The notes under the pieces: model-generated
What the model was told of the DNA's origin: nothing
Seen by the model: only the letters and a program-made list of their open reading frames with translations
Database searches by the model: none
Translations under genes and position numbers: made by a program
NCBI GenBank assembly: GCA_049287205.1
Contig: JBAQFJ010000001.1
Coordinates: forward strand, 43,156 to 107,155
Length of the DNA: 64,000 bases
Direction of reading: 5' to 3'
Source of the DNA: Microgenomates group bacterium
GTDB lineage: Bacteria; Patescibacteriota; Microgenomatia; UBA10105; UBA927
Part shown: positions 39,736 through 45,869 of the stretch, piece by piece
Layout of the letters: each line of letters starts with the position of its first letter
Numbering within the stretch: the first letter of the stretch is position 1

Positions 39736-41631
39736 ATGCCCAAAACCTATTCCGTAAAAGAAGCAGCCGCAATCCTCGGCTTTTCCACAAACACCATCTA
39801 TTCTTTCCTGAACGCGAAGAAACTGAAAGGACTTCGTATCGGCAAAGGGAAGTTTCGGATTCCGCAAAGTGAAATCGACCGGATGACCGGCGCGTCAGCG
39901 TCTGATACTTCAATATCTGAACTACCGGTGATTATTGAGCATCCGCATCGAAATGAAGAAAAATCCCTCGTCTTTCAGGAAACCATTCCGTATCTGCAGC
40001 ATTTGTCGTTGACTGATTGGTTTATTGGTATGGGATCTATCATTTTCGGATTGTCTATGTTTATTTATACCGCATCCATCGAGTTGTTTATTACCACACA
40101 ACTGATGGGGTGGTATTGGGTGCTTCGGGTATTATTTATTTTGTTTGGCGTCGGATTTTTGACGGCGAAGATTTCTGTTCGGGTTCCACCGATTTGGGTA
40201 ACTGTGTATCAGTGTTTGTTAATCGGATCATTTGGGTGGTTTATTGTGATTTCTCATTTAGCACATGACACGCAGGGGACAGTTGTCGGGTTTTTTATCT
40301 GTTTAATCATGCTTGCACACCTCTTTTTCAAACCCGCCTATCACACACTGATTGCGCTCACGGTACTGGAAGCAGTGGTGGTCAATACGATACTCTTTGT
40401 GTTTGCACCGGAGTATCTTGCACTTATCAACGCATCTTTTGGTATAACCGTCCGTTCGGGAATATGGGGACAACTTGCCACGTTAATTGTGCCGTTCGTT
40501 ATGTATCTTTTATTAGTTGTTTCTCACCGATTTTTCCTTCGGTTTTATTATTTTCTTATCATCCTTGGGTCTGTAGCATGCCATATCACCGCGTATTTTT
40601 GCGGCGTGCATCTTTTTTGGCGGCAGGGGCTTGAGTTTTTGTTTACCGGTATCATGTTATTTATCTACGCGATGCGGCAGACGGACGCGATGAAAGCATA
40701 CAAAAAAACATGGGTGACAGGAACAGTTTTAGGGCTTATATTTGCATGTTTTCTCGCTATTGTTTTGGCACTCAGGGTATTTGAACTGACAATGTTTGAT
40801 CATGCAAACAAGGAATTGCAGGTAAAAGCGGAAAACGGCAAGACATATTTGGAAACGGTATTCGGATATGCAAAAAAAAGCTTTGATGTATCTGCTCGGG
40901 AAGAAGGCCTCAGGCAGGCGCTTGAAACGAAAGATAGAAAAACATTAACTGAATCGGCAAAAAACATTTATGAACAATTTCCGCATATGTATCGGATTGT
41001 CATATTGGACAAGGATGGAACTGAACTGGCTAATTATCCTGAAGACGCTGCGTTGATCGGGAAAAACTATGCATACAGGGAGTATTTTCAGGATGCACTG
41101 ATTCAAGAAGGTACGGTATTTTCCGGAGCGGTTCAAACATCAGGTACTGTGAAAAGATATACCATCATTATGGCAAGTCCCATTGTCGAACATGGCACTA
41201 TTTATGGTGCGATTGCCGGATCATTTGATATGGATGAGTTGGGACGGAACCTCCAATCATTTGCAGCAGATGAAGAAGGAGAATATTTTGGGGTATTGGA
41301 TCGTGATGGTGTGCGCATCATCAATCCGGATATAACAACGATCGGATCAGCAATAACTTCTGCAGAGCTTGATAAATTCAAGAACATTCCATATTGGAAG
41401 GAAAATCTTGATACACGGATTAATCCACATGGGGTTCTTGTACATGCAACATATCGCTCGGTGGACTTCGCGAATGTATATATATCCGCAGTCCAGCCGT
41501 ATAAGGAAAATCTTCAGGCGAATTTGATCGCGTTGTGTATCACTTTGGTTATCAGTGCGTATGGGTACATTGCTACGCTCATCGCTTGGTATGTCTGCTA
41601 TAGAAAAAGTAAAAAACATGGAACTGGGTAA
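39736..41631 (+). CDS. membrane-bound one-component regulator: N-terminal HTH (Xis/MerR-like) + multi-TM region + extracytoplasmic Cache-like sensor domain + C-terminal TM
   Basis: [44 protein letters not shown] is an HTH_17-type motif. About 8 TM helices. A ~250-aa domain resembles a Cache fold ([16 protein letters not shown]...YFQDA...VFSG...YTIIMASPI...[12 protein letters not shown]) and is followed by a final TM helix. Its TAA stop overlaps the ATG of the next gene. Confidence 0.55.
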
Positions 41632-44600
41632 TGAATGACGAACTAATTCATCACGGACGTGTTTTGACACCAGAGCCCAAAGGGCTGCGGGTGTTTTCTT
41701 TGCGTATACAGCTCCTTCTTGCCGGTATTTTGTTTATTGGTGTTGGTAGTGTGGGTTTCTTGCTTACCGAAGTAAATAGGCCTTCAAAAGCCGCAGTACT
41801 GAGCGCGGAACGTGCGTCAGCGGCGATTGATGCGATCACCCCAAGCATTATTGCACATAGTTCTTTTGAAGGCCCGTATATTTTGACTATCATGCGTCGG
41901 GATGGATCCTATGCGTATGCATATGTCGAAAATGGTCAGCTTATCAATGATCATTTCACCTCTGATGTCGCTGTTCGTTTTACAAATGGTGATTACGCGA
42001 TCGTTCGTGATTTGCAGCAGAATCATATTTCAGTTTTTTATACGAAATCCGGAAAAAAAGAAGACGGGACGATTGTGAATAAAATGGTGACCGGTATCAT
42101 TCTTCCTGACAAATCAATACTTTCCGCAAAAATGGTAGATGCAACGATTGTGCGAGGGGAGTTGTATGGTGATTTTCGTGCGCTGCTATTTATCGACAAG
42201 ACGGCTATTACCGGAACAATTTCTTCTCACGATATTCTTTCAGCTGTCCGTATAACCCCAACGTTGATGACGGAAGATACAACGAATGCGATTGTTGTGC
42301 AGGAATTATTGAAGATGGTGTATAAAAACACATTGTCGGATGGTGGACGAGTACTTGGGTTAACCACAGATGATGAAAATGAAATAGTCACAGTGCCTCG
42401 TGTTCGAACGCTTGCGTATGCGCCGGGTGTTTCTACGTCTGTTGATGATGAAGAACAAGTGGTACGTGTCACAGGAGGGGTGCAACTCGCGAATGTCGCT
42501 CAGCCGTTGATCAGTGATATTCCACAAATACAAATTGTCAACATTGGTGGAGTCGCACGGTTACAATTTGCTGATTTTACGACACAACAGGCGGCGCAAC
42601 AGTCTGCAGGAAGTACAATTTTTGCTCCTGCCGGCGCAACAGGTGCAACAGGAGCCACAGGTACCGCCGGCGCAACAGGTACGCAAGGTACAAGCGGCGT
42701 AAAAGGAAGTGACGGATCTACCGGAGCTTCGGGAATAAATGGTATTGATGGAACGTCAGGCGCAACAGGTCCAATTGGAGAAACAGGCCCTGCAGGTCCT
42801 CCAGGCTCCGGTTCAGGAACAGGGGATGGAGCAACGGGTGCAACAGGTGCCACAGGTTCAGATGGTCAAACTGGAACGACAGGCGCAACAGGAGTAGAAG
42901 GAACGGTAGGTCCAACTGGCGCAACAGGTGTTCAGGGAATTCAAGGAGAAGTAGGAGTAACCGGTCCGACAGGTGCGACCGGAGTCGTTGGTCAAACAGG
43001 TGCAACAGGAGCTACAGGATCGACAGGTTTACAAGGTCCGACAGGTGCAACGGGTATAAATGGTGTTCAAGGTCAAACAGGGGTTACAGGTCCAACTGGC
43101 GCTACTGGAGCCACAGGAGTTGTTGGACAAACTGGTCCAACAGGTTCATCAGGAGCAACAGGTATACAAGGAACAACAGGACCGACTGGGTCAACAGGAT
43201 TACAAGGAGCAGCAGGGCAAACTGGACCAACAGGAGAAACAGGAGTTGCAGGTCCAACAGGCTCAACTGGGGCAACGGGAGCCTTTGGTCAAACAGGACC
43301 AACAGGTTCTACTGGTGCAACAGGAGCTGTTGGTCAAACTGGTCCAACTGGTTCTACGGGTGCAACGGGTGCACAGGGTATTCAAGGAAACGTTGGGAAT
43401 ACCGGTCCAACAGGCTCAACTGGGGCAACGGGAGCCTTTGGTCAAACAGGACCAACAGGTTCTACTGGTGCAACAGGAGCTATTGGACAAACAGGTCCAA
43501 CAGGTTCCACAGGTGCAACAGGAGCTGTTGGTCAAACTGGATCTACTGGTCCAACTGGTTCTACGGGTGCAACAGGTATTCAAGGAGAACAAGGAATACA
43601 AGGAAACGTTGGAAATACCGGTCCAACAGGTTCCACAGGAGCAACGGGAGCCGTTGGTCAAACAGGATCTACTGGACCAACCGGTGCAACAGGCGCACAG
43701 GGAATTCAAGGTGAATATGGTGTAACTGGTCCAACCGGAGCTACAGGTGTTCAAGGCCAAACAGGACCAACAGGGGCTACGGGTAGCGTTGGACAAACTG
43801 GTCCAACTGGATCCACAGGTGCGACAGGAGTCGCAGGTCCAACTGGAGCAACAGGTGCAACTGGATCAATCGGTCAAACAGGACCAACAGGTGCAACAGG
43901 AACGCAAGGTATTCAAGGAGAAACCGGAGTTGCAGGACCAACAGGTTCCACAGGAGCTACCGGAGCTATTGGTCAAACAGGTCCAACAGGAGCTACTGGC
44001 ACCCAAGGAACAACAGGTCCAACGGGAGCAACCGGTGAACAAGGCTTGCAAGGAAACGTTGGGAATACCGGTCCAACTGGTTCCACTGGTGCAACAGGAG
44101 CTGTTGGCCAAACGGGTCCAACAGGTGCAACAGGAACTCAAGGAGAACAAGGAATACAAGGTATTACTGGTCCAACCGGATCTACAGGCGCAACTGGTGT
44201 TCAAGGTATTACTGGTCCAACAGGGGCTACTGGTAGTGTTGGTCAAACTGGAACAACAGGTCCAACAGGTGCAACAGGCACACAAGGAATCCAAGGAGAA
44301 ACAGGAGTTGCAGGTCCAACTGGATCTACTGGCGCAACAGGTGCTGTGGGACAAACGGGACCGACGGGTGCAACAGGATCTCAAGGTATTCAAGGAAACA
44401 TTGGAAATACCGGTCCAACAGGTTCCACAGGAGCAACGGGAACTGCAGGACAAACAGGACCTACCGGAGCCACAGGTATTCAAGGAGAACAAGGATTGCA
44501 GGGAGATGCAGGTCAAACCGGTCCAACAGGCTCAACTGGTGCAACGGGAGCCGTTGGTCAAACAGGACCGACAGGTGCAACGGGAACGCAAGGTATTCAA

Positions 44601-45869
44601 GGAGAACAAGGAGTTGCTGGTCCTAGTGGAGCAACAGGAACACAGGGAGTTCAAGGTGAAACTGGTGCAACAGGTGTGCAAGGTGCAACAGGAGTCTCCG
44701 GATCATTACAAGATGTGTACGATGCAGGAACACCAACAATTCTTACAGATGCATCAGGTGATGTCATTATTACTGTTATCGGCGGAACAACAGACACACA
44801 ATTTAAAATAAATGCGGCAAGTCAACCTGAAATTGATATGTTTGCGATCACCAATAGTGGTCAAGCAACGGTTATTGATGGTGTTGACGGATTATCTATC
44901 GATTTTGTGCAAGGGACCGATACAAATGGAGCAGACAGCAATGCCGGACTTCGGATTACGTTAACCCCCGGATCAGAATCGAATAATATTCTTGATGCAC
45001 TCCATATTTCCAATATCTCCGCAGGAGATGCATTGGAACGAGGTGTTGTACTTGGAACTGGGTATGATCGCGATATTGAATTTGCAGATACGACGCCAAC
45101 CGTTGCGATGGCTGATACCGGAACACTTTCTATTACTGACGGAACGAATACATTATTCTCATTTATTGACAGCGCGAATACCGGTATATTGCAGCTTGCG
45201 GCAAAAACAACAGCGACCGATCCTGCATCTTGCGCAGTCGGACAACTGTATATAAATAGTACAGACGGCACAGTGAAAGCGTGTACAGGAACGGATACAT
45301 GGGAACAATTAGATAATACTGCAGCACCTGGCGGTGGCGGATGTACGACGTGTAATCTCACGCTTCAACCGGAATACCCCGGCGCGACACTGACTGCAAA
45401 TGGATCAGCAAGTATCAACGGTACGATGACATCTGATAATTCTATGAGTGAATCGAGTGCAGAATGGCGAAATTATTATGAATGGAAAAGCAGCCAAACT
45501 GCCCTGCAGGATTACACGGTTGCCGTGCGGGTAAAATTACCGACCAACTTTGCAGGCTGGCAAACTTCAAACGCCATCGTCATTAATTTTGTGACACAGT
45601 CAAACGCAGCTGCAAGTAATCAGATTGATGTGGATATACGAAATGCAGATGATACTCCAGGGACGTCTGTGGCAACAAGTCTTGATAACGTATCGGGAAC
45701 AGGAGCAGTTTGGAGCACCATTGTGATTGATGATTCCGTACTTGTCACAGGGGGCGCGCCTGAGTGGGATGCAGCGGGGGAATCTGCAGTCATACTTTTG
45801 AAAGTGCAGTCAAAAGATGCCAATTACGTACGGGTCGGCGATATTATTTTGAACTATACAGGGAATTAA
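41631..45869 (+). CDS. membrane-anchored collagen-like repeat protein 2 (1412 aa)
   Basis: N-terminal TM helix ([18 protein letters not shown]), a ~280-aa domain, about 700 residues of GXY triplets ([19 protein letters not shown]..., [13 protein letters not shown]...), and a ~390-aa C-terminal domain. Confidence 0.85.

Follow-up and report, generated by a model that had tools for sequence, protein, structure and literature searches.

A 64,000-nucleotide stretch of the genome of an ultra-small Microgenomates group bacterium (Patescibacteria; contig JBAQFJ010000001.1, positions 43,156 to 107,155; hereafter the window, whose own numbering is used throughout) encodes on its plus strand, at 41631..45869, a membrane-anchored collagen-like protein of 1412 amino acids (aa) that is preceded by a gene for a membrane-bound sensor protein. 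We infer, with a probability of roughly 60%, that the two genes co-produce a trimeric, probably glycosylated attachment fibre and its sensor partner. Three chains would wind into a collagen triple helix of about 200 nm, a stalk that would keep three lectin-like tips at a distance from the cell, where a conserved glycan of a host cell or substrate would be their ligand. The fibre gene is the second of a conserved two-gene unit, the first encoding a polytopic membrane protein with an extracellular dCache domain and usually a cytoplasmic helix-turn-helix (HTH) domain of the HTH_17 type. This partner may dock the membrane-proximal N-domain of the fibre at the membrane, or couple an external chemical cue to expression of the fibre, or both.

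Membrane anchor and collagen-like stalk

A second collagen-like protein with an N-terminal membrane anchor had been announced in a preliminary description of the window, and an open reading frame (ORF) of 1412 codons plus a stop codon indeed occupies exactly 41631..45869. The first 25 residues (41631..41705) contain three Arg and one Lys and are placed in the cytoplasm according to the positive-inside rule. They are followed by a hydrophobic segment of 21 residues (aa 26-46; 41706..41768) with a Kyte-Doolittle mean of up to 2.34 over 19 residues, which is the sole strongly hydrophobic segment of the protein and exceeds a typical signal-peptide core in length. It has no cysteine and is, therefore, not a lipoprotein signal. 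We read it as a predicted type II signal-anchor, an orientation in which the C terminus would be outside. Next come an N-terminal ectodomain of 288 residues (aa 47-334; 41769-42632), a Gly-X-Y tract of 687 residues and a C-terminal region of 386 residues (aa 1027-1412) with the last residues ILNYTGN; the estimates given earlier for these three parts, 280, about 700 and 390 residues, were close. Other ORFs inside the locus, in other frames or on the opposite strand (43060..43725, 43747..44811, 43866..44516 on the minus strand, and others), are shadows of the low-complexity composition of the collagen tract.

According to its glycine register, the tract has 229 triplets in two runs, 20 triplets at aa 335-394 (42633..42812) and 209 uninterrupted triplets at aa 400-1026 (42828..44708), and the five residues SGTGD between them (aa 395-399; 42813..42827) are the sole break. 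The Pfam family PF01391 (Collagen) matches with E=4.4e-100 and 327.9 bits, the cutoff being 27.2. Thr occupies the Y position in 143 of the 229 triplets and the X position is mostly Ala (63), Pro (39) or Ser (29); GAT (49), GPT (35), GQT (21) and GST (20) are the most frequent triplets. Thr makes up 23% and Gly 33.5% of the tract, with 5.8% Pro and 2.6% charged residues. Such GXT-rich triplets, including GPT, are potential substrates of Thr O-glycosylation as in collagens of the BclA/Pcl type, and by analogy with BclA-type GXT collagens O-glycosylation of the 143 Y-position Thr residues probably stabilises the stalk. With 0.286 nm per residue, the whole stalk as a triple helix would measure about 196 nm, roughly one cell diameter for such bacteria.

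An independent comparison is offered by a syntenic ortholog from another metagenome (L014; ENA ERZ27297473), which has the same architecture in 1364 residues, with 213 triplets, 16 fewer than in the window. Nine indels separate the two tracts (27, 3, 15, 3, 3, 24, 3, 15 and 9 residues), all of them multiples of three, and neither tract shows a Gly slip. The 209 unbroken triplets and the register-keeping indels, despite a tract identity of only 77%, support a triple-helix constraint; apparently, the triplet register is held by selection, and sequence and length of the stalk evolve fast. The same data bear on the idea that, instead of a triple helix, the tract forms a mucin-like spacer, flexible and heavily O-glycosylated. 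The high content of Thr and Gly and the scarcity of Pro and charged residues would suit a spacer of this kind, but a disordered linker is under no constraint that would preserve phase through indels and keep 209 triplets free of a Gly slip, and we consider it very improbable.

Relatives carry even longer stalks. Among the metagenome loci L030, L038, L048, L067 and L081, the fibre at L067 has 482 triplets in a complete protein of 2555 aa, and ORFs truncated by the contig end hold at least 526-569; folded as triple helices, these stalks would extend over 400-490 nm. Most contigs of the metagenome set end within the collagen tract. Since short-read assemblies break there, fibre genes are systematically truncated or missed.

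Conserved ends of the fibre

Homologs of the C-terminal region, 25 in number, contain no Pfam domain except Collagen in one of them. Their coverage divides the region in two: a middle part (aa 1027-1236; 44709..45338) is common to some homologs, the terminal 170 or so residues to all. The middle part is shared with non-collagen proteins of Patescibacteria, and its motifs include a 16-residue one and GTGYDRD. When the region was modelled with AlphaFold2 as a monomer from a 26-sequence alignment, only the terminal domain (aa ~1239-1412; 45345..45866) was confident, with a predicted local distance difference test (pLDDT) score of 90-96, compared to 45-75 in the middle part. In a Foldseek search of the PDB this domain matched the carbohydrate-binding module (CBM) TmCBM61 (2xom) with E=3.8e-5, a probability of 1.0 and a target-normalised TM-score of 0.60. 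The entries 2vzp, 6sgf and 8j3x also had probability 1.0. Further matches were CBM35, CBM6 and CBM86 as well as C-terminal domains of phage proteins, 5w6h, 7xyc and 8iq9 (CBA120 TSP4, Klebsiella phage Kp7 gp52 and K2-2 TSP). No entry for BclA, C1q or TNF was among the best 50 PDB matches. The domain is thus confidently modelled as a jelly-roll beta-sandwich of the CBM or galactose-binding-domain-like type, for which carbohydrate binding is predicted.

In sequence searches, the terminal domain and its 25 homologs matched nothing in Pfam, NCBIfam or the PDB, and they stand outside the described CBM (CAZy) families. The N- and C-terminal regions of the fibre likewise found no PDB sequence, and NCBIfam and PHROG searches of both ends gave no match save a weak one of the stretch around a cysteine-bounded hairpin to phrog_1325 (E=2e-4), a family of unknown function. 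There was no tblastn match of the terminal domain in 50,697 phage records and none in IMG/VR. We also considered whether the gene derives from a phage tail fibre or tailspike, that is, from a prophage, and rejected this in view of the missing phage homologs, the single weak PHROG match and the housekeeping neighbours (LepA, tRNA synthetases). The terminal-domain family occurs exclusively in contigs of the Patescibacteria type, with homologs titled Woesebacteria, Roizmanbacteria, Amesbacteria or Patescibacteria, and the domain is at the extreme C terminus in all 17 loci checked.

The same terminal beta-sandwich is found in a second family (P0004, P0006, P0017 and P0020; L004, L006, L009 and L013), which is laid out as a cleavable-looking signal peptide, a conserved N-domain with the pattern INFQGKVVN.DGTNV..Y.F, a variable Gly/Thr-rich middle that contains GIGTTNP motifs, and the terminal domain. 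These proteins usually end in ...Y.AKF.

The fibre protein has four cysteines. The CxxC-type pair pointed out in the preliminary description is present as CTTC (C1238 and C1241; 45342..45353) in the linker just N-terminal of the terminal domain, and a second pair that had gone unmentioned, C1201 and C1218, bounds a hairpin of 18 residues (45231..45284). CTTC is restricted to the four closest sequences (the window, L014, P0001/L001 and P0002); a Woesebacteria homolog with 61% identity and all others do not have it. The hairpin is kept in L014, P0001, P0002 and L002 alone. The CxxC is, therefore, confined to this lineage and does not define the terminal domain; that CTTC acts as an inter-chain disulfide staple is speculation.

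Selection on the individual parts was examined by comparing the window with L014, using amino acid identity and the fraction of identical codons among conserved residues. The terminal domain is 98.9% identical (identical codons 67.2%), the middle part of the C-terminal region 96.2% (66.7%), the tail, transmembrane helix and N-domain (aa 1-334) 90.4% (68.2%) and the collagen tract 77.3% (54.9%); the values are 95.4% (68.5%) for LepA and 85.6% (68.3%) for the partner. Outside the tract, identical codons are mostly 67-70%, with 59.6% in a 1084-aa gene further downstream. The uniform codon divergence together with the 98.9% identity of the tip indicates purifying selection stronger than that on LepA, and not a recent import. 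Between these close relatives the tip is under purifying, not diversifying, selection.

The second conserved end is the N-domain, with a core at aa ~64-252 (41820..42386), as defined by matches to a hidden Markov model and by AlphaFold2, and a linker of lower confidence (aa 253-334) that leads to the collagen tract. A word-index homolog search with the N-terminal 334 residues found nothing. An exhaustive HMMER search with a threshold of E<=1e-3 retrieved 51 representatives, of which 37 reach E<=1e-10, and the N-domain is, therefore, not an orphan. An AlphaFold2 model from 33 sequences has a pLDDT of about 90 for aa ~67-236 and is beta-rich with one helix. Foldseek found no match for this fold (best E 0.063 against the PDB and 0.017 against BFVD), and the profile of the domain matched no Pfam or PDB sequence. 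Nearly all representatives start with a short tail and a transmembrane helix, followed by the N-domain. About 20 run into a Gly-X-Y tract that starts at aa 245-490, mostly at ~265-340, and many end inside the tract, which reflects contig breaks. The C termini of the family are varied: two members have the CBM-like domain and several have short similarity to the C-terminal region of the first collagen-like protein of the window, which is described below. The distant genomes L005, L015/P0029 and L023 repeat the full architecture of transmembrane helix, N-domain, collagen tract and this terminal domain.

One member of the N-domain/collagen family (L019:5001-9398; P0039, GCA_041643075.1) has a weak match to Peptidase_S74, a domain that serves phage tail fibres and endosialidases as an intramolecular chaperone. 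Its presence would fit a trimeric fibre that matures by self-cleavage.

The properties of the two ends also have to be weighed against a different function, that of a protective or structural coat, a hair-like nap as formed by BclA on Bacillus exosporia, in which the tip would bind the cell's own wall, S-layer glycans or neighbouring fibres. A coat would explain why the terminal domain, like wall-binding modules, ends many signal-peptide proteins that have no other obvious anchor; strong purifying selection on the tip is expected for a self ligand, and the closest known GXT-rich collagens do form naps. However, with its N terminus in the membrane and its C terminus bound to the wall, a 200-nm rod would have to loop back. 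Distal, receptor-binding ends of phage tailspikes are among the best structural matches, and the very diverse C termini in the N-domain family fit outward specificity better than a common self anchor. A coat is, in our view, possible but unlikely, and we favour the attachment fibre.

The upstream dCache partner

The partner gene (39736..41631, plus strand) encodes 631 aa and its stop codon overlaps the start codon of the fibre gene (TAATG). The protein begins with a cytoplasmic DNA-binding domain of the HTH_17/excisionase type (aa 5-49; 39748-39882; HTH_17 E=1.9e-9), which also matches TIGR01764 with 33.3 bits at a cutoff of 28.8. Hydropathy then indicates about 7-9 transmembrane helices at aa ~100-356, followed by an extracytoplasmic dCache_1 domain (aa 356-578, from 40801; Pfam E=9.8e-13), a final transmembrane helix (aa 595-619) and a 12-aa tail. 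In the PDB, a profile built from 16 homologs finds the dCache sensor domains of chemoreceptors and kinases (6iop with E=3.9e-8, 3by9, and KinD, 4jgo), and the protein is 100% identical to MFZ2024698.1, annotated as 'DNA-binding protein [Microgenomates group bacterium]'. It has neither a kinase nor a chemoreceptor output domain, the HTH being the only output part. DNA-binding domain, transmembrane region and extracytoplasmic sensor domain are thus held in one chain, as in a membrane-bound one-component regulator.

The association of both genes is stable. A dCache partner is immediately upstream of the fibre gene and on the same strand in 12 out of 12 loci looked up. Forward look-ups started from fibre homologs (L014, L005, L015, L016, L017, L018, L019 and the P0050 contig); in reverse look-ups from three partner homologs with 25-58% identity, each had a gene for a transmembrane helix, N-domain and Gly-X-Y tract directly downstream. 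A scan of metagenomes with the partner alignment gave 112 loci, 80 of which were fetched, and an N-domain ORF was directly downstream of the partner in 57 of the 59 informative loci (48 of 50 after removal of redundancy). The intergenic distance ranges from -14 to +72 nt, and the pairing is retained where partner identity between pairs drops to 22-29%. The two genes are translationally coupled, and their pairing is near-obligatory. The only intact partners without a downstream fibre gene are those at L068:5394-6594 and L087:9896-12001, which are followed by 1.2-2.1 kb without a long ORF; no remnants of an N-domain could be detected in these gaps. Promoter and terminator scans of 39000-56500 in the window were at chance level, with 41 promoter-like sites (36.6 expected) and 17 terminator-like sites (14.8 expected).

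A different arrangement was seen in L001 (L001:8410-11026; ENA ERZ28614920 scaffold_709). Here, a collagen-like gene starts with two HTHs of the HTH_17/excisionase/MerR type (TIGR01764 E=1.6e-14), followed by a transmembrane helix, a short stalk and Gly-X-Y triplets, before a 100-N scaffold gap within the tract. Beyond the gap lies a C-terminal domain that is 90% identical to the one in the window. This gene has no N-domain and no upstream dCache gene. Either the head was really exchanged through the repeat or the scaffold was joined wrongly, and only the 5' part with HTHs, transmembrane helix and collagen triplets is certain. A possible homology of the N terminus of the first collagen-like protein to this HTH head was considered and rejected.

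The pairing raises the question of whether fibre and partner form a contact- or ligand-sensing device, one membrane complex held together by the N-domain. Contact of the fibre tip, or a small molecule bound to dCache, would then be relayed to the cytoplasmic HTH and alter gene expression, with the fibre serving as an antenna as well as a tether. The near-obligatory, translationally coupled pairing, even though partner identity falls to 22-29%, would be expected for such a complex, and so would the fact that the part of the fibre conserved across the family is the membrane-proximal N-domain and not the distal end. The partner has no output other than the HTH, and the L001 protein with its two HTH_17-type domains is a fusion-type link between DNA binding and a transmembrane collagen. 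But three of 11 partners have no HTH, regulators in the same operon are common without any physical coupling, and the 3' end of the L001 gene lies across the 100-N scaffold gap. We consider a sensing device of this kind quite unlikely.

It is tempting to combine both functions and to regard fibre and HTH-polytopic-dCache partner as a single envelope-spanning apparatus, a hitherto unrecognised system for host contact and host sensing in ultra-small episymbiotic Patescibacteria of groundwater and sediment. The fibre would be a glycan-binding tether of about 200 nm (up to roughly 490 nm in relatives) with its N-domain docked on the sensor, and the sensor would link the fibre and/or a host-derived ligand directly to cytoplasmic DNA binding. 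This proposal is an unlikely one as it stands. If true, it could explain part of the filaments observed between such bacteria and their hosts.

Several points weigh against the attachment fibre. The triple helix and its trimeric state, the glycosylation, the exposure at the surface and the binding of a ligand are predictions. Residues that usually stabilise a collagen are scarce in the tract, with 5.8% Pro and 2.6% charged residues, and the stability of the helix is, therefore, uncertain without glycosylation. The similarity to CBMs is at the level of the fold, with 8-13% identity and target-normalised TM-scores of 0.5-0.6 obtained with a monomer model. The terminal domain is also the last part of many proteins with a cleavable-looking signal peptide but no further anchor, and could, therefore, be a module that binds the cell envelope and not a distal tip. 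An adhesin in an arms race with its host is expected to diversify, whereas the tip found here is highly conserved. The HTH is absent in three of 11 partners, which keep the polytopic-dCache body, and this weakens a purely transcriptional role of the partner. Finally, the length of the tract past 43280 rests on one assembly, and the tract has an exact repeat of 78 nt inside.

Authenticity, surroundings and relation to known systems

The window contains another, first collagen-like gene (8136..15461, minus strand), whose product of 2441 aa consists of a cytoplasmic N terminus of 125 aa, one transmembrane helix, 434 triplets and a C-terminal region of 949 aa. It has no N-domain, no terminal domain of the fibre type and no upstream partner gene. 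The C-terminal regions of the two proteins are unrelated (BLASTP E of at least 0.33; HHalign probability 0.15%), in agreement with the difference between their C-terminal domains that had been noted before. The suggestion that the two represent a family with diversified tips does not hold for this pair, which has only a collagen tract and the topology in common; it does apply at the scale of the family to which the fibre belongs, which is marked by the N-domain and an obligatory upstream dCache gene and has varied C termini, and fails again between close relatives, in which the tip is the most conserved part.

The repeat of the fibre had been described as different from, and more varied than, the 15-mers of the first protein. 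It is more varied: residue autocorrelation peaks at lag 15 (0.358) and lag 33 (0.369) in the fibre tract, whereas the value at lag 15 is 0.575 in the first protein, whose array is more regular. The unit differs only in part. Tandem Repeats Finder detected arrays with a period of 45 nt, corresponding to a 15-residue unit, at 43249-43369 and 43407-43559 of the fibre gene as well, besides higher-order periods of 99 and 126 nt (33 and 42 residues).

Is the fibre gene a misassembled or chimeric copy of the gene at 8-15 kb? The tract is repetitive, with its exact internal repeat of 78 nt, and short-read contigs do break inside such tracts, as at 43280 in L020 and at the gap in L001. But the two tracts of the window are only about 64% identical in DNA, a level expected from shared composition, with different codon and residue usage, and the flanks of the fibre tract are unique and conserved; the preliminary description had already thought a duplicate improbable. 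G+C at third codon positions (GC3) is 0.17 in the tract and 0.35-0.37 in the flanking domains, in a genome of about 42% GC, an AT bias like that of the genome and stronger than in the flanks. The Logan short-read contig L020 (SRR28062503) matches 35957-43280 of the window without mismatch and ends at the onset of the 45-nt arrays. The architecture is shared by L014, with in-phase indels only, and the gene order LepA, partner, fibre, a 557-aa gene and a 1083-aa gene is the same. The GC3 bias of the tract, the exact short-read match up to 43280 and the syntenic ortholog argue that the fibre gene is native and real, and we give an artefact next to no credence.

Downstream of the fibre gene, on the same strand, are three tightly packed genes (45875..54121) for proteins of 557 aa (with an N-terminal transmembrane helix), 1084 aa and about 1100 aa (the latter two with signal-like N termini), which have no match in Pfam, NCBIfam or PHROG. 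They are syntenic in L001, L014 and Woesebacteria UBA925 (L002), not in L005, L015 and L023, and are context outside the conserved core. A gene of the Beta-lactamase2 family follows at 54137-55135. The housekeeping genes of the window (LeuRS, ArgRS, argininosuccinate synthase and lyase, LepA, ComEA and ComEC) are typical of reduced genomes; scans of the window for tRNAs and with Rfam found nothing. ComEA (HHH_3/SLBB) is encoded at 19351-19962, just upstream of the ComEC ORFs, in which the ComEC-like channel (PF03772; 19992-20837) and the metallo-beta-lactamase domain (21135-22043) are split, both on the plus strand and about 300 nt apart.

Two polytopic membrane proteins with C-terminal tetratricopeptide repeats (TPR) are encoded at 34797-36287 (plus) and 3876-5753 (minus), and a counterpart is found at L023:2918-4432. 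The latter carries a match to PMT_2 (protein O-mannosyltransferase-like). The membrane parts of the two proteins of the window gave no PMT_2 match, and we claim no dedicated glycosyltransferase there. TPR or PMT_2 genes are also near the cassette in L016, L018 and L024, and membrane proteins of this kind may be candidates for glycosylation of the Thr-rich stalks.

Directly upstream of the first collagen-like gene, a 179-aa ORF (15468-16007, minus strand) matches the SAM-like N-terminal domain of phage integrases only (PF02899; E=1.7e-11) and may be a truncated recombinase. GC content rises to 0.53-0.63 at 10000-14000 and GC skew is negative here only, being positive across the rest of the window; this shift is the footprint of the minus-strand collagen tract.

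Collagen-like adhesins of bacteria are well known, and the fibre shares with BclA and Pcl proteins an anchoring N terminus, a Thr-rich GXT stalk of polymorphic length and a C-terminal globular beta-sandwich domain. In Pasteuria, the C-terminal globular domain of Pcl7 suffices for host attachment (PMC10987987), and genes for collagen-like proteins have radiated in this genus (PMC13233619). In contrast to these systems, the organism studied here does not form spores, a transmembrane helix serves as anchor, the stalk has several times the length of that of BclA, the tip matches CBM-type sandwiches, and N-domain and dCache partner have no counterpart there. A search for an exosporium-targeting motif (LIGPTLPPIPP-like; PMC10987987) found no GPT[LF]P within the first 120 aa of the fibre.

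Streptococcal Scl1 and Scl2 and Lcl of Legionella are also collagen-like adhesins of the bacterial cell surface, in which trimer formation is nucleated by a globular domain. Scl proteins have a C-terminal LPXTG anchor, a distal N-terminal variable domain and a charge-rich stalk. Compared to them, the polarity of the fibre is reversed and only 2.6% of the residues in the tract are charged; LPxTG occurs nowhere in the protein. With CBM61, CBM35, CBM6 and CBM86 and the C-terminal domains of phage tailspikes, the tip has in common the beta-sandwich fold and a position at the distal end of a fibre that, here, would be trimeric. It differs from them by an identity of only 8-13%, membership in no Pfam or PHROG family and absence from the phage and IMG/VR collections. 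The partner resembles regulators of the ToxR/CadC type in combining a DNA-binding domain, membrane span(s) and an extracytoplasmic sensor in one chain, but its DNA-binding domain is of the HTH_17/excisionase type and not an OmpR-like winged helix, and about 7-9 transmembrane helices of unknown family lie in between. In its dCache part, the partner is a homolog of the 6iop, KinD and PctA/C sensor domains.

Full-text literature searches found no paper on collagen-like proteins in Patescibacteria (or CPR), nor one that links such proteins with Cache domains or reports the gene pair. What appears to be new is the setting in Patescibacteria, the two unannotated domain families that flank the tract, the extreme length of the stalks and, most of all, the near-obligatory link to an HTH-polytopic-dCache gene.

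Patescibacteria account for a large part of bacterial diversity and are believed to live attached to other cells. A review counts predicted adhesin surface proteins among their essential functions, and type IV pili of a few cultured Saccharibacteria are the only contact molecules known (PMC11665869). The locus described here is a concrete and widespread candidate for such a contact: a very long fibre with an interchangeable distal end and a strictly linked sensor/DNA-binding partner. It provides testable reagents, namely the tip domain, the N-domain and the HTH, and a simple genomic signature by which fibres of this kind can be found.

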